Assembly (NCBI GenBank): GCA_022844165.1
Contig: JALHMH010000059.1
Coordinates: 1-13,362 of the forward strand
Source: Lysobacterales bacterium
GTDB lineage: Bacteria; Pseudomonadota; Gammaproteobacteria; Xanthomonadales; SZUA-5
DNA: 13,362 nucleotides
Direction of reading: 5' to 3'
A program made the position numbers and the translations under genes. Under the pieces are notes generated by a model, which saw only the letters and a program-made list of their open reading frames with translations, had not been told where the DNA came from and searched no databases. Every line of letters begins with the position of its first letter. Position 1 is the first letter of the stretch. Shown one piece after another: positions 1 to 11,950 of the stretch.

Positions 1-1027
1 GCCAAGAATTGACGTACTCAAAAAAACTCTGCCCGAAGTGTGCGTTTAACGTCTGCGAGAGCGTATGCGAGCTGATTTGCAGCCGTGAAGCCAGTTCATG
101 CAGGGAGAGTTCTGGCTCCAGAAATGGCATTTCGGTGGACATCAGTGCATTGAGTCTGGCACCGATTTGCGCCAGTTCCTGTGGGCTGATACCGGACCTG
201 GCGTACTTTGGCGTCGCAGTCGATGCCTTCGGGAGTTCAGTCTCACTGCGGTCCAGGGCCGTCGCAGACGCCAGCAATTGGGTGTGTTCTTGCGCATATT
301 CAGAGGCGGGCGAGGGGCGTTGCGCATTCCAAAGTTGCGGCTGGTTCAGGCCCACATAGCCCATGACGTAAACGGAGATCGCCACGCCAAATTGTCCAAG
401 CAGATCGGCCCACGTCCAGAGAAAAACCAATGAGAGCATCCAAAGCGACCAGAGCACTGCGCATATGCAGAGGAGTTGCACCAGCCAACGCAATTTGTAT
501 CGCTCAGCATTGGAGTATTCAGCCTCCAGCGCACGCCAATAGTGACGCAAAACGAAAATGCTTCGCAGCAGATAACCCAATGTCAGTATGCCGACAGCAA
601 TTAGAAAGGCGCTCGGCCCGCTTTCGGTCATGTGTAAATCGGTCATGATCGTCGCACGGCGCGTAGACAGCGGTGCGAATATCTCAGGAAGCAACAAACT
701 CTGGAGCAAGAAGTACGGCAAGAAATGCAGCAGTATCATGGGAAGTCGCCACGGTTGGCGACCGATCATCGTGCGTACATAGCCGTAACAGAGCGGGCCA
801 ATCGCCAGAATCAAAGCGTCGAACAGCTGATACAGATAGGGCAACTCCAGTATTGCCCTGGTCTGCAACAACACATCGCCGAACACCACGAGCGAAAGTG
901 CTGCCACAAAGCCGCCCAGCCACAGCAGTTGCGACTGACGACGTCGCACCGCCAGCGCGGCCAAAAGCAGCGCCAGCAGCAAACCTTGAATGGCCCCGGC
1001 GCCAATAAGCAAGTTCAGAACAATCAT
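1..1027 (-). CDS. Membrane-anchored AraC-family transcriptional regulator (partial, runs off the left edge)
   Basis: Manual translation from ATG at 1027 is open to base 2 (342 codons): MIVLNLLIGAGAIQGLLLALLL...IGPLCYGYVR...LLHFLPY... Several hydrophobic TM segments are followed by KYARSG...PFLEPELSLHELASRLQISSHTLSQTLNAHFGQSFFEYVNSW, the first helix-turn-helix of an AraC domain. It is absent from the ORF track because there is no stop in the window. An in-frame upstream TGA makes 1027 the most upstream start. Confidence 0.92.
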   Translation of the reverse strand, partial: MIVLNLLIGAGAIQGLLLALLLAALAVRRRQSQLLWLGGFVAALSLVVFGDVLLQTRAILELPYLYQLFDALILAIGPLCYGYVRTMIGRQPWRLPMILLHFLPYFLLQSLLLPEIFAPLSTRRATIMTDLHMTESGPSAFLIAVGILTLGYLLRSIFVLRHYWRALEAEYSNAERYKLRWLVQLLCICAVLWSLWMLSLVFLWTWADLLGQFGVAISVYVMGYVGLNQPQLWNAQRPSPASEYAQEHTQLLASATALDRSETELPKASTATPKYARSGISPQELAQIGARLNALMSTEMPFLEPELSLHELASRLQISSHTLSQTLNAHFGQSFFEYVNSW

Positions 1028-1289: not shown

Positions 1290-3422
1290 ATGAAAAGCCG
1301 TTGGCTGTTGCTGGTTCTGATCGTCGTCGCCATCGCGATGTTCTTCGGCTTTGGCCTCGACGACTACTTGTCGCTGCAACGGCTGAAGTCAGAGCAGGCA
1401 GCGCTTGCAGCCTGGATCGCGGACAACGCCGTCATTGCCGCCGCTGCGTACTTCATCGCCTACGTGCTGGTGGCGGCGCTGTCGCTGCCTGGGGCGGCGG
1501 TGATGACGCTCGCGGGCGGCGCGCTGTTCGGTCTTGGATTTGGCACGCTGCTGGTGTCTTTCGCCAGCAGCCTTGGCGCGACGCTCGCCTTCTTCGCCGC
1601 GCGGTTCTTGTTTCGCGATGTGGTGAAAGAGAAGTTCGGCGAGCGCCTGGCGCCAATCGAAGCGGGTGTGGCGCGCGATGGTGCGTTTTACCTGTTCACG
1701 CTGCGCCTGGTGCCGGCGTTCCCGTTTTTCCTGGTGAACCTGTTGATGGGACTGACGCCGATGAAGAGCGGCGTGTTCTATCTCGTCAGCCAGATCGGCA
1801 TGTTGCCGGGCACGGCCGCCTTCGTTTACGCGGGCACGCAGCTGGCTCAAATCGACAGCCTGTCGGGCATATTGTCCCCGGGTTTGCTGGGTGCATTCGC
1901 CATCCTCGGCGTATTGCCGTTGCTGCTGAAGTGGCTGCTCGGTACGCTCGCTGCGCGTCGCGTGTATCGCGGCCACACCAAGCCCAAATCGTTCGACTAT
2001 AACTTGATCGTGATTGGCGCCGGCTCCGCGGGTCTGGTCAGCGCCTACATCGGCGCGGCAGTGAAATCGAAGGTGGCGCTGATCGAGCGGCATCGTATGG
2101 GCGGCGATTGCCTGAACACCGGCTGCGTGCCATCCAAGGCGCTGCTGCGCAGCGCGCGTCTGGTGGCTGAGGCCAAACGCAGCGCGCGTCTGGGCATTCG
2201 CTCGATGCACATCGATATGTCGTTTGCCGAAGTCATGGCCCGTGTGCACAGTGTCATCGCGGCTGTCGCGCCGCACGACTCGGTCGAGCGCTATCGCGGA
2301 CTCGGTGTCGACTGTATCGAGGGCGAAGCGAAGCTGGTGTCGCCGTGGATGGTAACCGTCAATGGCCGGTCGCTGAGCGCTCGTTCGATCATCGTCGCCA
2401 CGGGCGCAAAACCGTTGGTACCGGCCTTGCCGGGTCTGGAAGATGTCGATTACTTGACCACCGATAGCGTCTGGTCGTTACGCGAACAACCGCAGCGTTT
2501 GCTGATCCTGGGCGGCGGCCCGGTGGGTTGCGAGCTGGCGCAAGCGTTTGGGCGCCTGGGCAGTCAGGTGACGCTGGTGGAGATGGCGCCGCGGCTGGTC
2601 CCGCGCGATGAAGACGACGCCAGCGTGGCGCTACGCGCTGCGCTCGAACACGATGGCATCGATATCCGCACTGGCCACAAGGCGCTGCGCTTCGAGCGCG
2701 GTGGCGGCGCCCAGTCGCTGATCGCGCAAGGCGCCGACGGCGAGATCTCGATTCCTTTCGATCGTGTGTTGCTGGCGTTGGGGCGCAAAGCCAATGTCGA
2801 TGGATTTGGCCTGCGCGAACTGGGCGTGGTGTTGAATCAGCGCGGCACGGTGGCCGCAGATACCCTGATGCGCACCAATTTCCCGAACATTGCGGTCTGT
2901 GGCGATGTGACCGGGCCGTTGCAGTTCACGCACGTCGCCGCGCATCAGGCGTGGTACGCGGTGGTTAATCAACTACTCGCGCCGTTCTGGTCGTACCGCG
3001 TCGATATGCGTGTGATTCCCTGGGTGACCTACACTGAACCGCAGGTGGCGCGCGTCGGGCTGTCGGCCGCCGATGCCGAACAACAAAACATCGCTTTCGA
3101 AATCACACGCTACGGCATGGACGATTTGGACCGCGCGATCGCTGATGACACGGCCGAAGGTTTCATTCAAGTGCTTACCGTTCCCGGCAAAGATCGCATT
3201 CTCGGTGCGACGATCGTGCATGCCGAAGCCGGCGAGTTGATCGCCCCATTCGTGCTGGCAATGAAACACAACCTGGGCTTGAACAAGATCCTGGGCACAG
3301 TTCACGCCTACCCAACCTTGATGGAAGGCAACAAATATGTGGCGGGCGCCTGGCGCCGGGCACACGCGCCGATCAAGGCACTGGCCTTCGCAGAACGCTA
3401 TTTCGCTTGGAGACGCACATGA
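1290..3422 (+). CDS. DedA/VTT (TVP38/TMEM64, SNARE-associated) membrane domain fused to a class I pyridine nucleotide-disulfide oxidoreductase (MerA/Lpd-like)
   Basis: The N-terminal ~220 aa are hydrophobic with DedA-type motifs (LPGAAVMTLAGGALFG, GATLAFFAARFLFR, LRLVPAFPFFLVN). Then come the FAD motif IGAGSAG, the redox disulfide GGDCLNTGCVPSK, the NAD motif GGGPVGCE...VTLVE, GDV and C-terminal HAYPTLME. It lacks the MerA C-terminal CC pair, so it is not called merA. Confidence 0.93.
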   Translation: MKSRWLLLVLIVVAIAMFFGFGLDDYLSLQRLKSEQAALAAWIADNAVIAAAAYFIAYVLVAALSLPGAAVMTLAGGALFGLGFGTLLVSFASSLGATLAFFAARFLFRDVVKEKFGERLAPIEAGVARDGAFYLFTLRLVPAFPFFLVNLLMGLTPMKSGVFYLVSQIGMLPGTAAFVYAGTQLAQIDSLSGILSPGLLGAFAILGVLPLLLKWLLGTLAARRVYRGHTKPKSFDYNLIVIGAGSAGLVSAYIGAAVKSKVALIERHRMGGDCLNTGCVPSKALLRSARLVAEAKRSARLGIRSMHIDMSFAEVMARVHSVIAAVAPHDSVERYRGLGVDCIEGEAKLVSPWMVTVNGRSLSARSIIVATGAKPLVPALPGLEDVDYLTTDSVWSLREQPQRLLILGGGPVGCELAQAFGRLGSQVTLVEMAPRLVPRDEDDASVALRAALEHDGIDIRTGHKALRFERGGGAQSLIAQGADGEISIPFDRVLLALGRKANVDGFGLRELGVVLNQRGTVAADTLMRTNFPNIAVCGDVTGPLQFTHVAAHQAWYAVVNQLLAPFWSYRVDMRVIPWVTYTEPQVARVGLSAADAEQQNIAFEITRYGMDDLDRAIADDTAEGFIQVLTVPGKDRILGATIVHAEAGELIAPFVLAMKHNLGLNKILGTVHAYPTLMEGNKYVAGAWRRAHAPIKALAFAERYFAWRRT

Positions 3423-4213
3423 AAATCTACATCGCCATCCTACTGTTCGCGCTGACCGGCAGCGTGGCCGCATTCGACCACGAGCATCGGGCATTCACCG
3501 AACTCCTGGCGCCGCATGTCGCCTGGAACGCCGCTGGAACGAGTACTGGCGTCGACTACGCCGGATTGCAGCGCCAGCGGGCGCCGCTGCGGGAATACCT
3601 GGCGACGCTCTCGGCGGTCGATCAAGCCACGTTCGATGGTTTCACGTTACCCCAGCGTCAGGCATTTCTGATCAACGCGTACAACGCGTACACGCTGGAG
3701 TTGATCCTCACCGCGTACCCGAAACTCGAATCGATCAAAGATCTGGGATCGCTGTTTTCTTCGCCTTGGAAGAAGGCCTTCTTCCGGCTGCTCGGCGAGG
3801 AGCGCCACTTGGACGACGTCGAGCACGGTTTGCTGCGCGGTGCCGAGGACTTCAACGAGCCGCGTATCCACTTCGCCGTGAACTGCGCATCCATTGGTTG
3901 TCCGGCGTTGCGGCCGGAGGCCTTCACCGCTGCGCGATTTGATGCGCAACTCGACGACCAAACGCGTCGATTCCTGCGCGACCGCACGCGCAATCGCTAT
4001 GAGGCGGACGACGATGTGCTGCTGCTGTCGTCGATCTTCGATTGGTACGCCGGCGACTTCGAGACCGGCTGGCGCGGCACCGAGTCGGTGGCGGCATTTG
4101 TCGCGCTGTATGCGGATGCCATCGGCGCCGATCCCGCGCTCGCCGCGCGACTGAAGAGCGACGAGGTGGAGATCGACTATCTCGACTACGACTGGTCGTT
4201 GAATTCGAAATGA
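3419..4213 (+). CDS. Exported DUF547-domain protein (264 aa)
   Basis: ATG at 3419 overlaps the upstream stop (ATGA). It has a signal peptide MKIYIAILLFALTGSVAA and motifs VDY, AFLINAYNAYT, LDDVEHGLLR, EPRIHFAVNCASIGCPAL, LSSIFDWYAGDF, YDWSLN. Confidence 0.92.
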   Translation: MKIYIAILLFALTGSVAAFDHEHRAFTELLAPHVAWNAAGTSTGVDYAGLQRQRAPLREYLATLSAVDQATFDGFTLPQRQAFLINAYNAYTLELILTAYPKLESIKDLGSLFSSPWKKAFFRLLGEERHLDDVEHGLLRGAEDFNEPRIHFAVNCASIGCPALRPEAFTAARFDAQLDDQTRRFLRDRTRNRYEADDDVLLLSSIFDWYAGDFETGWRGTESVAAFVALYADAIGADPALAARLKSDEVEIDYLDYDWSLNSK

Positions 4214-5241
4214 GCGCGCGTGTCATTCTGATCGTGGATGCCAGCCAGGAGGCCCTGCTTCGCGCTGCGTTTATGGGCGCCGGCTTTGCGGTGCGCGTTC
4301 CGACGCCGGACGAGAGCACGCTCGACAGGTGGATCGCGTTGGCGCGTTCAGGCGAAGCCGCGCTGTTCGTCATTGATCCGCGTCGCTTGAATACGGTCAA
4401 TGTCAGTCTCGCTGCCGCTGCCGCGGCCATCCGGTTGCAAATACCAGATGCAGCAGCGGCTGCATCGTTCAGCGACCGCGAACGACCGCTACCGCTGACT
4501 CATAACTGGGCAATCCGGCATGGATTGTTGGGCGCCTTCGGTCGCGTAAGCAAGGCGCAACTCGCACAATCGGCGGAAGCGCTGTTGGAGGCAGCTACGC
4601 GTCGCATCGGCGCGTCATGGCAGCCTGAGCGTGTGCAGCAGTTTGCGCGCGCGCTGTTGACCGTCGATACCGATGCGAATCTTACGCCGACGGCCATGAG
4701 CGACGAATTCGTCGATCGCCTGGCCGATTCGATTCTCGAAGAATGCCTGGCGCTCGGCGATCGACGTTGGCGCCTGAAGTCCTATCCCAGTTGTTTTGTC
4801 GGCATCGATGCGGTCAGCCAGATGGCACGCAAGTTGGGTACTGATCGCGCTGCGGCGACCGCCTTTGGCCAACGCCTGCTTGAACGCGGTTACATCTATC
4901 ACGTCACCGGCGATCAGCCCTTTCGTGACGGCAACTTCTACTATCGGGTGCATCAGATCACTGACCGCCTCAAACGCGTCGATATCGACCAGATCGAACT
5001 GCATCTGCGCAAACGTGTGGCCATCGCCGATCGCACCTGGCGTGGTTTGTCTTTCCCGCGCTGTTTTGTGGGCAGCGACGCGCGCCAGATTTTGATGCGC
5101 GAGGTGGACCTGGGGTTTGCAGAGGCCGTGACATTGGGCCAGGCACTGCTCGAAACCCACGCATTCCGGCACGTGGCCGATGCCCACGATTTTTTTGGCA
5201 CCGACTACTTCTATCGCTTCGTGCCGGAGGTCTACGCATGA
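4210..5241 (+). CDS. Receiver-like N-terminal domain plus two tandem DEP (Dishevelled/Egl-10/Pleckstrin) domains (343 aa)
   Basis: Start moved to ATG 4210 (ATGA overlap). Two 66-aa repeats 90 codons apart (4753-4950, 5023-5220) follow the pattern DRxWR..S[YF]PxCFVGxDA...A...GQxLLE....HV.....F....[FY][YF]YR[VF], matching the DEP consensus. The N-terminus has a beta/alpha receiver-like pattern (VILIVD...LFVID); this part of the call is weaker. Confidence 0.85.
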   Translation: MSARVILIVDASQEALLRAAFMGAGFAVRVPTPDESTLDRWIALARSGEAALFVIDPRRLNTVNVSLAAAAAAIRLQIPDAAAAASFSDRERPLPLTHNWAIRHGLLGAFGRVSKAQLAQSAEALLEAATRRIGASWQPERVQQFARALLTVDTDANLTPTAMSDEFVDRLADSILEECLALGDRRWRLKSYPSCFVGIDAVSQMARKLGTDRAAATAFGQRLLERGYIYHVTGDQPFRDGNFYYRVHQITDRLKRVDIDQIELHLRKRVAIADRTWRGLSFPRCFVGSDARQILMREVDLGFAEAVTLGQALLETHAFRHVADAHDFFGTDYFYRFVPEVYA

Positions 5242-5681
5242 GCCTATGGTTGCTGGTCGCCGCGCTCGCCACTGCTTCACTGGACGAACTCGCATCCGAG
5301 GGTGCTGCCGCGTATCCAGATGCCCCAGTCATTCGCGTCGAACAGGCCGTGGCACGCACGGATGCGCTGCTGCTCGATGCGCGCGGCGCGGAGGAAATGG
5401 CCGTGTCGATGATCGCGGGTGCGATCCCCGCAAACGCGCTCCCGGACGCCATCGGTGATCGCGTCGTGATCGTCTACTGCACGATTGGCGTGCGCAGCGG
5501 CGAGCTGACGCTGGCGCTGCGCAAGCGCGGCATTAATGCCTACAACCTCTACGGCGGCGTGCTCGCCTGGGCGCAGCAAGACGGTGTGTTCGTCGATAGC
5601 GCCGGGCAACCGACGCGCCGCGTGCATGTGTATGGAAAACGCTGGAACCAACTGCCGAAGAGTTTTGAGCCGGTCTTTTGA
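5238..5681 (+). CDS. Rhodanese-like domain protein, probably exported (147 aa)
   Basis: ATGA overlap with the upstream gene. Motifs are LLLDARGAEE..VSMIAGA, the active-site loop IVYCTIGVRS and YNLYGGVLAW. The N-terminus is short and hydrophobic (MSLWLLVAALATA). Confidence 0.9.
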   Translation: MSLWLLVAALATASLDELASEGAAAYPDAPVIRVEQAVARTDALLLDARGAEEMAVSMIAGAIPANALPDAIGDRVVIVYCTIGVRSGELTLALRKRGINAYNLYGGVLAWAQQDGVFVDSAGQPTRRVHVYGKRWNQLPKSFEPVF

Positions 5682-5760
5682 CGGGAACATTTCGAATCCC
5701 GCCAATCCGCTGTCGCAACCTGCGCGGTATGCCGCGCACATCAACCAGGAGAGAGCAACG

Positions 5761-6066
5761 ATGCAAAGTCATACCACCCCGCGCTGGGCCTTGATTGGCG
5801 TGCTTTTTGTCGGTCTGGGCGCTGCTTTCGGCACTTCGGCCTCTGGCACTCTGTCGCCCGGCGGCAGTGTCGACCCCACGGAGCAAGGACGCCGTGTGTA
5901 CCTGAAAAAAATCGCTTGCACAGACTGCCCCGTGCCCGGCGGTGTATCCGACAAGAGCGCGGCGATGACGCTGGTGGAGCGTCTCAACGCCAACGAGTTC
6001 TCGCTTTCGCGCCGCGAGCGCAACGCCGTCGTCAGCTATCTCAATCGCCGCTGGCGCCTGGGCTAA
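5761..6066 (+). CDS. Small exported protein, class I cytochrome c-like pattern but with CxxCP instead of CxxCH (101 aa)
   Basis: SD AGGAG precedes ATG 5761, followed by a signal peptide-like segment and EQGRRVYLKKIACTDCP...LSRRERNAVVSYL. The ORF-track start at 5536 overlaps the rhodanese gene and is rejected. Confidence 0.7.
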   Translation: MQSHTTPRWALIGVLFVGLGAAFGTSASGTLSPGGSVDPTEQGRRVYLKKIACTDCPVPGGVSDKSAAMTLVERLNANEFSLSRRERNAVVSYLNRRWRLG

Positions 6067-6077
6067 GGAATATCAAG

Positions 6078-6908
6078 ATGAGAAAATTATTCGCTGTGGC
6101 TTTGAGTTGTGTGGGGATTGCGCCGGCATTTGCTGTATCGCCGTGGCTGCCGGTCGCTGGCGGACACGAATTCAGCGTCAGCTATATCGATCAAAACGCA
6201 GATCGTTTTTTTGTCGGCGAAAACGAAATGAACTTGCCGGCCGATCTTGAGCTGCGCACCTTTCAGGTGAACTATGCGTATGGCATCAACGACCGCTGGG
6301 CGCTCGATGTTCAGGCCGGTTACGCCGAGAGCGATTTCATCGTCGATCCAGGCCTGGCGCCGCGCGGCGGGCTCGATGGCTTCACCGATGCGCGGATCGG
6401 GTTGCGTTGGCTGGCATTCGATCAATTCGATGGCCGTCCGTTCACGCTGACGTTGGCGGGCGCTGTGCTGATCGAAGGCGACTACGATACCGGCGCGATT
6501 TCTGCTATCGGCGATGGCGCCAGTGGCGGCGAGTTGTCGCTGATCACCGGTCGCAGCTTCGACTCCGGATTTGCCTGGCAGAGCGAGTTGGGTTATCGCT
6601 TCCGCAGCGGCGAGGTGCCGAACGAGTGGTTTTTCAATCGTACTTTGAGCTACGGATTCAATGATCGTATTTCGGGTCGCCTGAGCTGGAACTCAGTCGA
6701 CGGTCGCGGCGATCTGGACATCGGCGGCCCTGGATTCTCGCCAGCCCGTTTTCCAGAGCTCGAAGAGGACTACGATCTATGGCTCGCAGGCGTGAGCTTT
6801 GTGCCCAGCGATACCTGGCTGCTTGGGTTCGATTACGGTCGTAAGTTCGATGGCCGCAACACCGCCAAGAGTGATGTGTTCGCGTTCACTGTCGGCCGGA
6901 GTTTCTGA
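6078..6908 (+). CDS. Outer-membrane beta-barrel protein, putative channel (276 aa)
   Basis: SD TAAGGA precedes ATG 6078, followed by signal peptide MRKLFAVALSCVGIAPAFA. There are many amphipathic aromatic-ended strands (VNYAYGINDRWALDVQAGY, WQSELGYRFR, LLGFDYGRK) and a C-terminal BAM-type signal FAFTVGRSF. Confidence 0.85.
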   Translation: MRKLFAVALSCVGIAPAFAVSPWLPVAGGHEFSVSYIDQNADRFFVGENEMNLPADLELRTFQVNYAYGINDRWALDVQAGYAESDFIVDPGLAPRGGLDGFTDARIGLRWLAFDQFDGRPFTLTLAGAVLIEGDYDTGAISAIGDGASGGELSLITGRSFDSGFAWQSELGYRFRSGEVPNEWFFNRTLSYGFNDRISGRLSWNSVDGRGDLDIGGPGFSPARFPELEEDYDLWLAGVSFVPSDTWLLGFDYGRKFDGRNTAKSDVFAFTVGRSF

Positions 6909-7639
6909 TGCGCACCGTCGCCGTTATTCCGGCGCGCGATGAGGCGCAGGTGATCGGGCGCGTGGTTGGCGACTTGCTCAGCGCGCGGCGGGGACGCCGC
7001 GCGTTGGTCGATCGCGTCATCGTCTGCGACAACGGTTCGGTCGATGGCACCGGCGCGGTTGCCGCAGCCGCTGGAGCATTGGTGGTGCGCGAGGAGCGCC
7101 GAGGTTATGGCGCCGCCTGTTTGCGCGCGCTGCGCGAGATCGGCGATGCCGAGGCCGTATTGTTCGTCGACGGCGATGGTTCGGTGCGTGCCGAGGACGC
7201 CTGGGCGCTGCTGCTTGCCCTCGATCAGGGTGTCGATCTGGCCCTTGGTCAGCGCCCGCTGGAATGGGTGGAACCCGGCGCCATGACGCCGCCGCAAGTG
7301 GCAGGAACGCGTTTTGCGGTCATGCTGATCCGCTGTTTGTTCGGCTATCGATTCGCTGACCTGGGTCCGCTGCGCGCGATCCGGCGGGCGTCGCTCGAGC
7401 GATTGCATATGGCGGACGCGGCTTACGGTTGGACCGTCGAGATGCAAGTCAAAGCGCTGCTCCACGACCTGCGCATCGTCGAATTGCCAGTGCACACCGA
7501 TAGACGCGTAGGGTTGAGCAAAATCAGCGGCACCTGGCGCGGCGTGATTGGCGCAGGATGCGGCATCATCGGCATGACGCTGAAACTGCGCATCGGCGCC
7601 TGGGTCGACGCGTTGCGGCGGCGCTCGCTCGCCGCGTGA
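6908..7639 (+). CDS. GT2 family glycosyltransferase, DPM1/polyprenol-phosphate glycosyltransferase-like (243 aa)
   Basis: TGATG overlap with the upstream gene. Motifs are VIPARDEA, VIVCDNGSVDGT, RGYGAAC, a DxD motif (FVDGDGS), DLGPLRAIR, GWTVEMQVKA and SKISGT. Confidence 0.92.
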   Translation: MRTVAVIPARDEAQVIGRVVGDLLSARRGRRALVDRVIVCDNGSVDGTGAVAAAAGALVVREERRGYGAACLRALREIGDAEAVLFVDGDGSVRAEDAWALLLALDQGVDLALGQRPLEWVEPGAMTPPQVAGTRFAVMLIRCLFGYRFADLGPLRAIRRASLERLHMADAAYGWTVEMQVKALLHDLRIVELPVHTDRRVGLSKISGTWRGVIGAGCGIIGMTLKLRIGAWVDALRRRSLAA

Positions 7640-8913
7640 ACGTGCTGCTGGCGACTTTTGCGCTGCTCGCCATTGGCACACGCGCCGGATGGCCGCTACC
7701 GGTCTTAGTGGTGTTACTGCTGCTCGCACACCTGGCATTGCTCGGCTGCTGGCGCGAGCGTTTTTCGCGGCGTCGTTTGATGGCAGGCGCGACGCTCGCG
7801 GGATTGCTCGCGATGGCGGCCGTCCCGGTGGCTGAAGACGATTTTTATCGCTACCAGTGGGACGGCTGGCGCACGCTCAATCATGGCACGCCGTATGGCG
7901 CGGCACCGGCGAATCATTTTGGCGATGAGAGCCTGCCGGCCGCTGCACAAGCCGCGCTCGATGGCGTGAACTATCCCGATACACCCACCATTTATGGGCC
8001 TTTGTTGCAGGCACTGTTTGCGACGTCGTGGCTGCTGGGTGAGAACAGCTTTTGGCCGCTGCGTTCATTGACGCTGGCGCTGCATCTTGCCGCACTCTGG
8101 TTGGTGATGCGTTATGCGTCGCGGCGTGCGCTGGCGCTGGTCGCGCTCAATCCGGCGCTGTATTTCTTCGGTTTCATCAATCTGCATCCGGATATCTTGC
8201 TCGGCTGGCTGTTGTTGTTCGCCTGCATTGCAGCTCGTCGGACGCGAATTGCGACAGTGGGGGCGCTGCTTGGCGCGGCGGTGGCGACCAAAATCAGCGG
8301 GTTGATCGTAGCTCCCCTGCTGCTTGCTGCCGGTGGATTCGGCGCAGCGCTGCGCCGCGGAACGCCTGCGATGCTGGCCGCAATGGTGATGAGTTATGCG
8401 CCGTTTCTCGCATTCGGCGATGCCGCCGGGTTGCTCGCGTTTGGCAAGGAGTGGATCTTCAATCCTGGCGCATTTGCGCTGCTCGCGTTGGCATTCGGTG
8501 CCGATATTGCGCGCCTCATTGGCGCCGCGTTATTGCTCATTCTGGCGACAGCGCTACTGCGCACTCGGCGCGAGAATCTGGCGCGCAGCGCCGTCGTTTT
8601 GTTGTCAGCACTATTGCTGGTGGCACCCGTGGTCAACGCCTGGTACGTGCTGTGGTTGTTGCCGCTGGCAGCGCTCACGCGGGCGCAGACGCCGTTTGCG
8701 CTCGCCGCCGCGCTATCGTTGTCGCTGATGACGCGGGGCGAACTCGGTTTGGCTGGCGATCCGTTCTCCCTCGTGCCCTGGGCCGCAAGCTTGCAATGGT
8801 CGTTGATTGGCATCGCTGTTGCCTTCGATTTCATTCGTTGGCGAAAGGCGCATCAATACGCTCCGGTCTTGTCCGGATCGCATGGAGGCGCGCGCGCTTG
8901 CTCACCGCATTGA
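7636..8913 (+). CDS. Polytopic GT-C fold glycosyltransferase (GT87/DUF2029/MptB-like) (425 aa)
   Basis: GTG at 7636 overlaps the GT2 stop (GTGA). The first extracytoplasmic loop has EDDFYRYQWDG and PTIYGP, followed by ALNP, H-x-D, ATK and PVVNAWYVLWLLP. There are roughly ten hydrophobic segments. Confidence 0.82.
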   Translation: MNVLLATFALLAIGTRAGWPLPVLVVLLLLAHLALLGCWRERFSRRRLMAGATLAGLLAMAAVPVAEDDFYRYQWDGWRTLNHGTPYGAAPANHFGDESLPAAAQAALDGVNYPDTPTIYGPLLQALFATSWLLGENSFWPLRSLTLALHLAALWLVMRYASRRALALVALNPALYFFGFINLHPDILLGWLLLFACIAARRTRIATVGALLGAAVATKISGLIVAPLLLAAGGFGAALRRGTPAMLAAMVMSYAPFLAFGDAAGLLAFGKEWIFNPGAFALLALAFGADIARLIGAALLLILATALLRTRRENLARSAVVLLSALLLVAPVVNAWYVLWLLPLAALTRAQTPFALAAALSLSLMTRGELGLAGDPFSLVPWAASLQWSLIGIAVAFDFIRWRKAHQYAPVLSGSHGGARACSPH

Positions 8914-9959
8914 TCATCGCCACGCTGCTGCTTGCCGCTGCCAATGGCGGCAATGACAACATCAAGGGTGCAGCCACATTGCTCGGCGCGGGGCTGCTGA
9001 CGTATCGACAGGCAATATTCGGCGCGACGATTGCAACTGCAATGGGCGGCCTGATCTCGATTTTGATCGCTCAGGAGTTGCTCGCGTTATTTAGTGGGCG
9101 CGGCATTGTGCCTGATGGTCTGACGTCGACGCCGGCCTTCCTGCTGTCGGTTGCGCTGGCCGCGGGAATCACCGTGGCAATTGCCACCGTAGCAGGATTG
9201 CCGATCTCGACGACGCATGCGCTGGTTGGTGGCCTGCTCGGCGCGGGTCTTGGCAGTAAGGCGGTGGTGAATTTTGTGGCTGCCGCGACCGCGACCGCAT
9301 TGCCGTTGTTGTTGTCGCCGCTGATCGCTATGGCGGCGGCGCTCACGTTGGTGCCGGTTGTGGTTCGTTTGCGGCAGCGCCTGCAACCGCTGTGCGTCTG
9401 CGCCGTGCCGGTCGGCGGACCTGCGGCGAGCGTGGCCCGCGTTGTTGCAGCCAGCGACGATCCGCGCTGCGAAACTGCGCTGGAGCGCAGCGAATTGCGC
9501 CCGGCGAAATTGCTCGATGGCGCGCACCTGCTGAGTGCCAGTGCGGTCAGCTTCGCGCGCGGTCTGAACGACACGCCAAAAATCGCAGCCTTGCTGGTGG
9601 CCAGCGGCGCCGCCGATGTATGGGTCGCGGGCAGTGCGGTGGTGTTGGCGATGAGCTTGGGCGCAATTGCGGCGATTCGCGTCGCGCGCACCATGGCCTT
9701 TAAGGTTACCTCGATCGATGCGCCGCCAGGCCTGGCGGCGAATCTGGTCACCTCGTTTCTGGTGATCGGTGCCTCTCGGTTGGGTTTGCCGGTGTCCACT
9801 ACCCACGTGAGTACCGGTGCATTATTCGGCATTGCTCTTGGGCAACGAAGCGGCAGCCCAAGCGTCATCCGCAATATTCTGCTGGCGTGGTTGGCGACGT
9901 TGCCGATTGCCGCATTGCTGGCGTTCTCCATCGCACAACTTCTGAGGAGCTTTTCATGA
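8898..9959 (+). CDS. PiT/PHO4-family inorganic phosphate/anion transporter, divergent signature (353 aa)
   Basis: TTG start at 8898 with GGAGG at 8884-8888. Duplicated PiT motifs are ANGGNDNIKG / PISTTHALVGGLLGAG and ARGLNDTPK / GLPVSTTHVSTGALFG, with C-terminal AWLATLP. Confidence 0.9.
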   Translation: MLTALIIATLLLAAANGGNDNIKGAATLLGAGLLTYRQAIFGATIATAMGGLISILIAQELLALFSGRGIVPDGLTSTPAFLLSVALAAGITVAIATVAGLPISTTHALVGGLLGAGLGSKAVVNFVAAATATALPLLLSPLIAMAAALTLVPVVVRLRQRLQPLCVCAVPVGGPAASVARVVAASDDPRCETALERSELRPAKLLDGAHLLSASAVSFARGLNDTPKIAALLVASGAADVWVAGSAVVLAMSLGAIAAIRVARTMAFKVTSIDAPPGLAANLVTSFLVIGASRLGLPVSTTHVSTGALFGIALGQRSGSPSVIRNILLAWLATLPIAALLAFSIAQLLRSFS

Positions 9960-10990
9960 TTGCCACCGAATCTCTCGCCGCCATTCGTCATTACTACGGC
10001 AGCGTACTGCAGTCGTCGAGCGATCTGAAGACCGGCGCCTGCTGCACGATCGACGCCATGCCGGCGTATTTGCGTCGACTGTTGGACGACGTGCACCCGG
10101 CCGTTCGCGAGCGTTTCTACGGTTGCGGCTCGCCTCTGCCGCTGGCGCTCGAAGGCATGACGGTGCTCGATCTGGGTTGCGGCAGTGGCCGCGATGCGTA
10201 TCTGTTGTCGCGTCTGGTGGGCGAACGCGGCCGCGTCATCGGCGTCGATATGACGGCCGAGCAACTGGCCGTGGCCCGTGCGCACCTGGATTGGCAGGCA
10301 CAACGCTACGGCTATGCGCAGAGCAACGTCGAGTTCGTCGAAGGTTTCATCGAAGATTTGAGCGCCTGCGGTATCGCCGACGGCAGCGTCGATGTCGTCG
10401 TCAGCAACTGTGTGCTCAATTTGTCGCCGGAGAAACCGCGCGTGTTCCGCGAGATCATGCGCGTGCTCAAACCGGGTGGCGAGTTGTACTTCTCAGACGT
10501 TTTTGCCGATCGCCGCGTGCCTGCGGATCTTGCGCGCAATCCGGTACTGCTCGGCGAATGCCTGGGTGGCGCCATGTACCGCGAGGACTTTCGGCGCCTG
10601 ATGGCGAATGCCGGTTGCAGCGACGTGCGGCGCATCAAGGAATCGCCGATTGCGCTGCACGACGAAGCGATCATCGCCAAGATCGGCATGATCGGTTTCG
10701 CGTCTGTCACCTGGCGCGCTTTCAAGCTGCCGCTGGAAGATCGCTGCGAGGACTTTGGCCAAATCGCGACCTATCGCGGCAGCATCGACGGCGCGCCGCA
10801 TGCCTTTGATCTCGATGACCACCATCATTTCGAAACTGGCCGGCCGCTGCGTGTCTGCGGCAATACCTTCGACATGCTCGCAAGCACGCGTTTTGCCGCG
10901 CATTTCGAACTGGTTGGCGATAAACGCCGTCACTACGGACTATTCGATTGTGCGCCGGCGCCAGTCGCTAACGCCGCCCCTTGCTGCTGA
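9956..10990 (+). CDS. arsM: Arsenite S-adenosylmethionine methyltransferase, long AS3MT-like form (344 aa)
   Basis: ATG 9956 has an ATGA overlap and SD GAGGAG. The SAM motif is VLDLGCGSGRD with IGVDMT. All four As-binding Cys positions are present: DLKTGACC, FYGCG, SNCVLNL, GECLGGA. The protein ends in CC. Confidence 0.9.
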   Translation: MIATESLAAIRHYYGSVLQSSSDLKTGACCTIDAMPAYLRRLLDDVHPAVRERFYGCGSPLPLALEGMTVLDLGCGSGRDAYLLSRLVGERGRVIGVDMTAEQLAVARAHLDWQAQRYGYAQSNVEFVEGFIEDLSACGIADGSVDVVVSNCVLNLSPEKPRVFREIMRVLKPGGELYFSDVFADRRVPADLARNPVLLGECLGGAMYREDFRRLMANAGCSDVRRIKESPIALHDEAIIAKIGMIGFASVTWRAFKLPLEDRCEDFGQIATYRGSIDGAPHAFDLDDHHHFETGRPLRVCGNTFDMLASTRFAAHFELVGDKRRHYGLFDCAPAPVANAAPCC

Positions 10991-10999
10991 GAGCTTGCC

Positions 11000-11950
11000 A
11001 TGCACGACGTCCTGCCGCGCCTTCAGGCGCACCGGTTTCCCGCCATCGAGCGTGAGCGTATCGATACGCTGCAATTGAACTTGGGTTACCTGTGCAATTT
11101 GAGTTGCATCCACTGCCACGTCAACGCCGGGCCGCGGCGCAAAGAATTGATGGATCGGCACACGATGGAATTGGCGTTCGATGTCGCGGCACGCCACGGC
11201 GTAAAGCGTTTCGATCTGACCGGCGGATCGCCGGAAATGAACCCGCACTTTCGCGCTCTGGTGACAGAGGCGATTGCGCGCGGCATTCATGTGATGGATC
11301 GGCTCAACCCGACGATCATGGAAGAGCCGGGTTACGAATGGGTCGGGAGCTTTCTAGCCGAGCAGCGTGTAGAAGTTGTCGCATCGCTGCCGTGTTACAG
11401 CCAGTCGAATGTCGATGAGCAGCGCGGCGACGGCGTCTTCGAATCGTCGATCCGTGCTTTGCAGCAACTGAATGCGCTCGGTTATGGCAGCGATCCGGGC
11501 TTGCCGTTGAACCTGGTGTACAACCCCAACGGCGCCTTCCTGCCGCCCAATCAGCAGAAGCTCGAAGTCGACTACAAGCGCTTGCTCCAGGAGAATTTCG
11601 GTATCCGCTTCAACGCGCTGTTTGCACTCGCCAACATGCCCATCCAGCGCTTTGGGTCGTGGCTCGTATCCAAGGGCAAGTTCGACGAGTACTTGCTAAA
11701 GCTGATCGATGCGCACCGCGACGACAACCTGCCCGGCGTGATGTGTCGCTCGCTACTCAGCGTGGACTACGACGGTTATGTCTTCGACTGCGACTTCAAC
11801 CAGATGCTGCGTTTGTCTGCGAGCGATAGACCCCTGCACTTGCGCGATCTGTTGCAGGCCGAGATCCCGCGCAAAATCGCTGTCGCAGGCCATTGTTTTG
11901 GCTGCACGGCGGGCCAAGGTTCGAGCTGCGGCGGGGCGTTGGCGGCGTAA
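11000..11950 (+). CDS. arsS: Arsenosugar biosynthesis radical SAM protein with DUF3641 C-terminal domain (316 aa)
   Basis: Motifs are LQLNLGYLCNLSCIHCHVNAGP (CxxxCxxC), DLTGGSPEMNP, ASLPCY, LNLVYNP.GAFLPP, NMPI.RF, MCRSLLSVDYDG..DCDFNQML and HCFGCTAGQGSSCGG. It is adjacent to arsM. Confidence 0.93.
   Translation: MHDVLPRLQAHRFPAIERERIDTLQLNLGYLCNLSCIHCHVNAGPRRKELMDRHTMELAFDVAARHGVKRFDLTGGSPEMNPHFRALVTEAIARGIHVMDRLNPTIMEEPGYEWVGSFLAEQRVEVVASLPCYSQSNVDEQRGDGVFESSIRALQQLNALGYGSDPGLPLNLVYNPNGAFLPPNQQKLEVDYKRLLQENFGIRFNALFALANMPIQRFGSWLVSKGKFDEYLLKLIDAHRDDNLPGVMCRSLLSVDYDGYVFDCDFNQMLRLSASDRPLHLRDLLQAEIPRKIAVAGHCFGCTAGQGSSCGGALAA

Follow-up and report, generated by a model that had tools for sequence, protein, structure and literature searches.

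The class IV glutaredoxins (GRXs) of eukaryotes combine a GRX, a DEP and a DUF547 domain. According to the accessible part of a 2026 review (PMC13621322), these proteins have never been characterized biochemically, the full-length plant proteins resisted purification, and they are predicted to be cytosolic. In the DUF547 literature, we found only passing mentions, in plant, protist and phage papers. A second related group comprises proteins in which a DedA membrane domain is fused to a disulfide reductase. This is the commonest fusion of the COG0398 DedA subfamily and its function is unexplained in the accessible text of the subfamily paper (PMC10127716), which nowhere mentions DUF547 and was the only paper recovered by literature searches on arsenosugar gene clusters and on DedA–reductase fusions. 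A third is the arsenosugar pathway, in which ArsS generates 5'-deoxy-5'-dimethylarsinoyl-adenosine from dimethylarsenite, as stated in the part of PMC13598754 that was available. Here, we describe a 13,362-bp contig (JALHMH010000059.1; hereafter, the window) from the 4.68-Mb genome of a Lysobacterales bacterium (GCA_022844165.1), in which genes for a DedA-type disulfide reductase, an exported DUF547 protein and a protein with two DEP domains, DEP2, adjoin one another within a cluster of the organoarsenical type.

The three genes and their junctions are as follows:

1290..3422, + strand: VTT (DedA, TVP38/TMEM64-type) membrane domain fused to a flavin adenine dinucleotide (FAD)/NAD(P)H pyridine-nucleotide disulfide oxidoreductase, 710 residues (Pfam)
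3419..3422, + strand: ATGA overlap of the reductase stop and DUF547 start (sequence)
3419..4213, + strand: DUF547 protein, 264 residues, with an N-terminal Sec-type leader at ~3419-3478 (Pfam PF04784)
4210..4213, + strand: ATGA overlap of the DUF547 stop and DEP-gene start (sequence)
4210..5241, + strand: DEP2, predicted cytoplasmic protein of 343 residues with a receiver-like N-domain, a linker and two DEP domains
4216..4542, + strand: receiver (CheY)-like domain, residues 3-111, with Asp56 in the phospho-acceptor position (hhalign)
4735..4959, + strand: DEP domain a, residues 176-250 (Pfam)
5005..5229, + strand: DEP domain b, residues 266-340 (Pfam)

An initial annotation of this DNA had proposed that the DUF547 and two-DEP genes are coupled and follow a disulfide reductase. 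The sequence agrees: bases 4207-4216 read GAAATGAGCG, in which the DEP-gene ATG (4210-4212) overlaps the DUF547 TGA (4211-4213), placing the two domains on separate reading frames, and the gene at 1290-3422 that precedes both encodes a fusion of VTT and Pyr_redox_2 domains. Profile hidden Markov models placed both domains above their cut-offs. More specifically, the 3419-4213 product matched DUF547 (PF04784) with an E-value of 2.6e-25 (89.3 bits; cut-off, 27), and the 4210-5241 product matched DEP (PF00610) over two stretches with an E-value of 8.8e-36 (122.1 bits; cut-off, 32.7).

To establish how often these genes occur together, we compiled 51 loci encoding DEP2 relatives: the window, 12 loci from a set of one genome per species, and 38 loci from JGI metagenomes, which were scanned using an 11-sequence alignment. 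A locus was considered linked if a reductase and/or DUF547 gene lay within one or two genes of DEP2. By this definition, 20 of the 51 loci were linked: the window, 4/12 genome loci and 15/38 metagenome loci, L012 and L052 being identical in sequence. DUF547 was present in 16 of the linked loci, and three others (L040, L054 and L059) end at a contig edge immediately after DEP2. Three gene orders were found. The commonest, reductase–DEP2–DUF547, occurred in ten loci (L012, L045, L046, L048, L050-L053, L057 and L058); the window, L006, L008 and L030 have the order reductase–DUF547–DEP2; and L014 has DEP2–reductase–DUF547. The linked DEP2 proteins occupied three separate clades of a 43-protein tree, obtained by a quick search with support from the SH-like approximate likelihood ratio test (SH-aLRT) only, and the loci belong to the Lysobacterales and several betaproteobacterial lineages.

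In genomes of the same class, DEP was detected in 3/400 and DUF547 in 92/401. Because DEP is so rare, yet 20/51 DEP2 loci are linked, the adjacency is far beyond chance. Further, DUF547 was present in 10/10 DEP2 genomes tested, although these are kin and not independent, and 5/5 genomes in which DEP2 is not beside DUF547 carry DUF547 elsewhere. The initial annotation had set out beforehand that a one-off insertion of the DEP gene would speak against its proposal. The frequency of linkage and the three gene orders indicate that the DEP gene is not a one-off insertion. There is also a metagenomic protein, P0270, in which DEP and DUF547 are fused.

Several observations nevertheless weigh against a fixed association. 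Most reductase/DUF547 modules lack DEP, which is thus an occasional add-on. In the same family as the window, 20/22 genomes encode DUF547 and 1/22 encodes DEP2, and DEP2 was absent from all 11 DUF547 loci examined in relatives. The loci of the commonest gene order come mostly from one betaproteobacterial clade and, as kin, are not independent, and L049 has a reductase and DEP2 with no DUF547 within 8 kb. Moreover, 31 of the 51 loci (∼60%) show no module in the DNA covered, which in 13 of these is less than 5.2 kb. In one DEP2 clade of 12, the gene is fixed between gamma-glutamyltranspeptidase (GGT)/GNAT genes and type II secretion genes, and others lie beside histidine kinases, decarboxylase or transport genes. 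The conserved redox–DEP–DUF547 module proposed initially is therefore upheld in part: recurrence, co-occurrence and P0270 favor it, and the absence of DEP from most reductase/DUF547 modules does not.

The patchy distribution of DEP2 raises the alternative that the DEP gene arrived by horizontal transfer and rides along without any functional connection to DUF547, the two being adjacent because they move together as a genomic islet. In a set of 39 relatives, the gene was confined to the same genus. In L018 and L019, the order is ArsM–ArsS–DUF547–rhodanese, with the rhodanese gene directly after DUF547, so the window's DEP gene looks inserted between the two. Its G+C content at third codon positions (0.683) is toward the bottom of the operon's range but nonetheless inside that of its neighbors (0.668-0.781). 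A passenger would also not be expected to be translationally coupled at both ends, to associate with the module in three DEP clades, three gene orders and different bacterial orders, or to be accompanied by DUF547 in every DEP2 genome tested. We consider this alternative very improbable.

The initial annotation interpreted the locus as a split version of the eukaryotic architecture, and its description of class IV GRXs as uncharacterized Grx–DEP–DUF547 proteins agrees with the accessible text of the review cited above. The two systems have in common a thiol-disulfide oxidoreductase, DEP and DUF547, the eukaryotic representatives being GRXlike1/2. They also share a Cys-x4-Cys motif, which is present in bacterial, algal and fused forms of DUF547, and no function has been described in either. 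By contrast, the bacterial form comprises three genes, its oxidoreductase is an FAD/NAD(P)H enzyme on a DedA domain rather than a Grx, it has two DEP domains and a receiver-like domain, and its DUF547 protein is predicted to be exported, whereas class IV GRXs are predicted to be cytosolic in the portion of the review available. No glutaredoxin or thioredoxin-fold family was detected in the 13 window proteins (Pfam, E ≤0.01). As a statement of orthology, the split-architecture proposal is thus not sustained. The bacterial trio is best read as a functional analogue of class IV GRX, that is, a recurrent association of the same three parts, and not as its split orthologue.

Two fused relatives were found. 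One is P0270, a 500-residue DEP-DEP-DUF547 protein encoded on a 1547-bp metagenome contig. Its DEP pair and DUF547 domain share 33% (E 1e-23) and 30% (E 4e-33) identity, respectively, with those of the window; its linker is rich in Lys, Glu and Ser, and the contig may end before the N-terminus is complete. P0270 was the sole DUF547 carrier among the 56 proteins (49 long and 7 short) scanned with Pfam out of 147 non-self top matches of the representative search. In a tree of 67 DEP domains, P0270 and contig G092:C109 served as stand-ins for the eukaryotic class IV type. In a quick LG+G4 tree, both P0270 DEP domains group with the 24 bacterial DEP domains, all in one clade (SH-aLRT 95). In a quick mixture-model tree, no supported set held the P0270 domains, whose nearest rows were of eukaryotic type, and their placement is thus not robust. 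The G092 DEP domain had no detectable similarity to that of the window (E 4.3) and did not match the bacterial-DEP profile.

G092 is one of the three DEP-positive genomes in the class sample. At 8488-9866 (- strand) of its contig C109 (L067), a DEP exon lies beside a DUF547 exon, and the contig ends upstream. The G092 contigs are algal-like, with split reading frames and CAAA-type microsatellites. From these characteristics, G092:C109 is probably mis-binned eukaryotic DNA carrying a class-IV-GRX-like gene.

The DUF547 protein of the window begins with a hydrophobic, signal-peptide-like leader (MKIYIAILLFALTGSVAA/F), and the DEP protein has no hydrophobic segment. The initial annotation had pointed out this difference, and a predicted export leader proved general, occurring on 16/16 linked DUF547 copies. 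The inner membrane should therefore separate mature DUF547 from DEP2, and any contact between them would precede export. Alignment of 19 bacterial, algal and fused sequences revealed a DUF547 core, EPRIH-x-A-x-x-C-A-S-x-x-C-P. C156 and P162 occur in every sequence, and conservation reaches at least 90% for H151, A157, S158 and C161. In the window, the di-cysteine motif reads NCASIGCP, the codons for Cys156 and Cys161 occupying 3884-3886 and 3899-3901, respectively. Neither sequence nor profile searches related DUF547 to a solved structure in the PDB, and the ESM Atlas yielded no usable hit for its homologue P0298. The thiol oxidoreductase that accompanies DUF547 is Grx in plants and the FAD disulfide reductase in bacteria. 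Since the two-cysteine site is common to kingdoms and is always accompanied by such an enzyme, the Cys-x4-Cys motif would be the most economical candidate for a redox or metalloid-binding center.

The leaders of ∼10 of the 16 linked DUF547 proteins, from betaproteobacteria, carry twin arginines (seen at the upstream ends of the DUF547 genes in L012, L045, L046, L048, L050, L051, L053, L057, L058 and L064); the window copy is of the Sec type and has none. A twin-arginine motif is typical of export by the twin-arginine translocation (Tat) system, whose substrates have dedicated chaperones that hold them before export. The Tat leaders hint that DUF547 may fold, or acquire something, in the cytoplasm. 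One might ask whether DEP2 is a cytoplasmic escort, which would bind DUF547 or its leader soon after synthesis and let it go for export once the reductase had reduced or loaded it, contact being made before export only. The position of DEP2 between reductase and DUF547 in the commonest gene order would fit such a role, as would the fusion of DEP and DUF547 in P0270 and, as described in the accessible part of the review, in class IV GRX. Against an escort are the Sec-type leader of the window protein, the lack of similarity of DEP2 to known Tat chaperones in Pfam and NCBIfam, and the fact that most exported DUF547 proteins have no DEP partner. We regard an escort function as improbable.

The upstream reductase scored 75.4, 193.5 and 82.2 bits against the VTT_dom, Pyr_redox_2 and Pyr_redox_dim families of Pfam, respectively. 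Its redox-active motif is GGDCLNTGCVPSK, a CxxxxC center whose C274 and C279 are invariant in 14 orthologues, and its hydrophobic segments are confined to residues 1-258. With its VTT, Pyr_redox_2 and dimerization domains and CxxxxC center, the protein has exactly the architecture of the COG0398 DedA–disulfide oxidoreductase fusions; it differs from those described in that it is tied to DUF547, through adjacency and through triple fusions. The protein fell short of mercuric reductase (MerA), the TIGR02053 score of 354.2 bits being below the cut-off of 454.45, and the NCBIfam scores for lipoamide dehydrogenase and glutathione reductase were likewise under their cut-offs. Homologues were found in 126/401 class genomes. 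The genome of the window encodes a second VTT–disulfide reductase, 60% identical to the first (L071; G000:C25, 6537-8666), which stands alone beside CinA and an extracytoplasmic function sigma factor/kinase pair, with no DUF547, ArsS or DEP gene. The window copy is thus the cluster-specific reductase.

Protein fusions further connect the reductase to DUF547. Among 120 longer relatives of the window DUF547 among the matches listed, most were VTT–DUF547 fusions, six were VTT–reductase–DUF547 fusions and one was a reductase–DUF547 fusion; none was fused to DEP or glutaredoxin. In 4/6 triple fusions, a hydrophobic segment separates the reductase from DUF547, as expected if DUF547 were across the membrane from the reductase. 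According to tables compared by eye, no more than 5 kb separates the reductase from DUF547 in at least 12 of the 92 DUF547-bearing class genomes, the reductase adjoins or lies near ArsS in at least 10 class genomes, and at least 7 have DUF547 no more than 5 kb from ArsS. These tallies take in a few genomes flagged as unpublished (G076, G178, G344 and G332), none of which is among the counted examples.

DEP2 carries the sole DEP matches in the genome. A scan of all 4.68 Mb located them at 4753-4947 (70 bits) and 5017-5220 (58.7 bits). Translation likely begins at the ATG at 4210, because the same-genus orthologue, 67% identical, aligns from residue 1. A profile of the DEP2 family matched the tandem DEP pairs of DEPTOR (E 1.1e-38) and P-Rex1 (E 3e-34) over the full length of the pair. 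DEP2 thus shares with DEPTOR and P-Rex1/2 a tandem DEP pair, but it lacks their eukaryotic partner domains, PDZ and DH/PH included, and its N-terminus is receiver-like. The N-terminal ∼110 residues matched no Pfam family; more specifically, Response_reg (PF00072) was not detected at E ≤10 in seven family members. By contrast, hhalign comparison of a 52-member family profile with a profile of 80 receiver domains from the genome of the window yielded a probability of 96.4% and an E-value of 1.2e-9 over 99 columns. Asp56 aligned with the phospho-acceptor position of receivers, an Asp being retained in 41/43 family members, and the Thr/Ser at β4 was present. The domain differs from CheY-like receivers in lacking the Response_reg match and the conserved lysine, and in having DEP as output. 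We therefore describe it as receiver-like only and do not assign it as a receiver. We know of no DEP domain established as a bacterial output domain.

A word-indexed search of 5.8 billion clusters returned only 14 relatives of DEP2. An exhaustive search returned 1334 matches at E ≤1e-3 and 31 at E ≤1e-30, with dozens of proteins of ∼350 residues aligning end to end. DEP2 defines a bacterial family of receiver-like, tandem-DEP proteins, of which we found no description in the literature; a search for papers on bacterial DEP domains brought up nothing relevant.

DEP also occurs in other settings. Many of the best database matches to the DEP pair (P0138-P0191) are long proteins with 3-7 consecutive DEP domains, some with an AAA_16 (STAND-type) ATPase. 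Other bacterial architectures are an MscS channel–DEP fusion of 870 residues (L016:7715-10327) and an HD-GYP-type (HD_5)–DEP fusion of 567 residues (L070, G039:C64, 5574-7277). In the loci of the fixed-context clade (L034, L036-L039, L041-L044 and L047), DEP2 is divergent from the genes for a GNAT acetyltransferase and gamma-glutamyltranspeptidase, a glutathione-degrading enzyme, and points toward type II secretion genes F, E and D, which face it; this is a second conserved context of DEP2.

The DEP domain has a winged-helix fold. Together with the receiver-like N-domain and its Asp at the acceptor position, this raises the question of whether DEP2 is an atypical response regulator whose DEP winged helices bind DNA and control the operon or other genes, the link to DUF547 being regulatory only. 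Genomic context lends this some support: a histidine kinase gene lies 30 bp upstream of DEP2 in L014, kinase genes flank it in L009 and one is nearby in L033, and DEP2 also occurs away from the module, as a regulator might. However, the very strong matches of the tandem DEP are to the protein- and lipid-binding pairs of DEPTOR and P-Rex, and no DNA-binding family of Pfam or NCBIfam was matched. The DEP pair has a median isoelectric point of 6.8 (39 members), unlike typical basic DNA-binding outputs. The gene is mid-operon with overlaps at both ends, and other bacterial DEP domains are fused to a mechanosensitive channel or HD-GYP rather than to DNA-related modules. Overall, a DNA-binding role for DEP2 seems unlikely.

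We prefer a reading in which DEP2 is a cytoplasmic adaptor or regulator that, docked at the membrane or the VTT-reductase, adjusts the activity of a reductase–DUF547 thiol-redox unit for organoarsenical, or related, envelope chemistry; judged from sequence, we hold it about as probable as all else taken together. The reductase requires cytoplasmic NAD(P)H. In the proposed mechanism, the first unit would be the inner-membrane DedA/VTT domain with its fused cytoplasmic NAD(P)H/FAD disulfide reductase, the second the DUF547 protein, exported to the periplasm with its Cys-x4-Cys motif, and the third soluble, cytoplasmic DEP2, with its receiver-like domain and tandem DEP. The reductase and DUF547 would together make up the thiol-redox core, connected at the membrane through the VTT domain. 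The redox target may be the Cys-x4-Cys of DUF547 itself or a small thiol or metalloid conjugate that DUF547 handles. By analogy with eukaryotic DEP domains, DEP2 would be an optional cytoplasmic accessory, docking either on the reductase or on the membrane's inner face, and its receiver-like domain would couple the module to a signal, in keeping with the kinase genes near DEP2 in L014 and L009; it would make no contact with mature DUF547, across the membrane. Two properties of DEP2 sit uneasily with this adaptor reading. The absence of a Pfam hit and of the conserved lysine makes phosphorylation of DEP2 doubtful, and the non-basic DEP pair gives no support for simple binding to acidic lipids.

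The trio belongs to a larger unit. Eleven + strand genes span 1290-11950, with successive junctions of -4, -4, -4, +79, +11 and -1 bases, a GTGA overlap, an overlap of ∼16 bases, and -4 and +9 bases. This region is a single long operon of the arsenosugar/organoarsenical type, with the DUF547 and DEP genes mid-operon. Downstream of DEP2 are the following:

5238..5681, + strand: rhodanese-domain protein, its ATG overlapping the DEP-gene stop (ATGA 5238-5241; Rhodanese E 1.1e-8)
5761..6066, + strand: small exported protein, 101 residues, with a CxxC (CTDC) motif; no family match
6078..6908, + strand: outer-membrane beta-barrel protein, MetA-pathway type (PF13557 E 2.3e-6)
6908..7639, + strand: family 2 glycosyltransferase, polyprenyl-phosphate sugar transferase type (Glycos_transf_2 E 6.1e-14)
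7636..8913, + strand: polytopic membrane protein, no family match; start probably GTG 7636, overlapping the glycosyltransferase stop
8898..9959, + strand: PHO4/PiT-family anion transporter; start approximate (TTG 8898; PHO4 E 6.2e-51)
9956..10990, + strand: ArsM-like S-adenosylmethionine (SAM) methyltransferase, its ATG at 9956 overlapping the PHO4 stop (NF008823)
11000..11950, + strand: ArsS, arsenosugar-biosynthesis radical SAM enzyme (TIGR04167; DUF3641 and Radical_SAM)

ArsS scored 428.4 bits against TIGR04167 (cut-off, 300). The following were under cut-off: the ArsM-like protein scored 184.7 bits against NF008823 (cut-off, 263) and 106.3 against NF038099 (cut-off, 400), and the rhodanese scored 83.8 against NF045521, 'rhoda_near_glyco' (cut-off, 145). 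The glycosyltransferase is AglJ-like, at 93.7 bits and below cut-off, and is not a member of TIGR04283 (21.6 bits; cut-off, 182). TIGR04283 'arsenosugar' glycosyltransferases did score above cut-off in three other DEP2 loci, L012, L014 and L049, with TIGR04282 also in L014. In addition, L012 encodes an above-cut-off MTAP-type phosphorylase (6250-7248) and a TIGR03169 oxidoreductase, and L049 a PNP_UDP_1 phosphorylase. The link to arsenic chemistry that was initially suggested for the window thus recurs through these glycosyltransferases and phosphorylases. The locus resembles the arsenosugar pathway in its ArsS and, in other DEP2 loci, the TIGR04283/TIGR04282 glycosyltransferases; it differs in also containing DUF547, the VTT-reductase and the DEP protein, none of which has been described as belonging to that pathway.

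The occurrence of ArsS in 4/5 DEP2 genomes was rejected as evidence of a link, ArsS (TIGR04167) being above cut-off in 186/400 class genomes. That distribution is far wider than the few organisms with studied arsenosugars. DUF547 is also fused to an inosine-uridine nucleoside hydrolase in seven listed proteins (P0026, P0035, P0038, P0054, P0067, P0090 and P0110) and to a family 2 glycosyltransferase in four (P0032, P0065, P0086 and P0123). These fusions and the MTAP-type neighbor would fit steps after ArsS, namely adenine removal and glycosyl transfer.

Two further genes of the window bear mention. The small exported protein (5761-6066), between the rhodanese and the outer-membrane barrel, is 69% conserved in the congener and matched nothing in Pfam or NCBIfam; it may be a further periplasmic thiol partner. 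At 2-1027 (- strand), a divergent gene, truncated where the contig stops, encodes six hydrophobic segments and then an AraC-type helix-turn-helix-like tail. Its product had no Pfam match and may be a membrane-bound regulator of the operon.

A broader proposal is that the trio represents in prokaryotes what GRX-DEP-DUF547 is in eukaryotes, and may even have given rise to the eukaryotic protein or been derived from it. DUF547 would then be an enzyme or carrier driven by thiol redox chemistry, with a dedicated reductase servicing its Cys-x4-Cys, and would act on a membrane-associated or organoarsenical (arsenosugar or arsenolipid) substrate, and DEP would be a conserved membrane-side regulator. 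We consider this proposal speculative and rather unlikely.

The occurrence of a thiol oxidoreductase, DEP and DUF547 as small, co-transcribed bacterial genes provides guilt-by-association evidence that the three act jointly, flags the conserved Cys-x4-Cys as the likely redox site of DUF547, and ties the module to organoarsenical gene clusters. It also gives an initial clue to the function of the DedA–reductase fusions, which are common but unexplained. According to the accessible text of PMC13621322, no function is known for either class IV glutaredoxins or DUF547; the bacterial trio, whose parts can be expressed and deleted singly, offers a route to study them. If the broader proposal above is correct, DEP2 would be the first bacterial signaling protein with a eukaryote-type tandem DEP as output, and the separately expressible bacterial parts would make the function of class IV glutaredoxins experimentally tractable for the first time.

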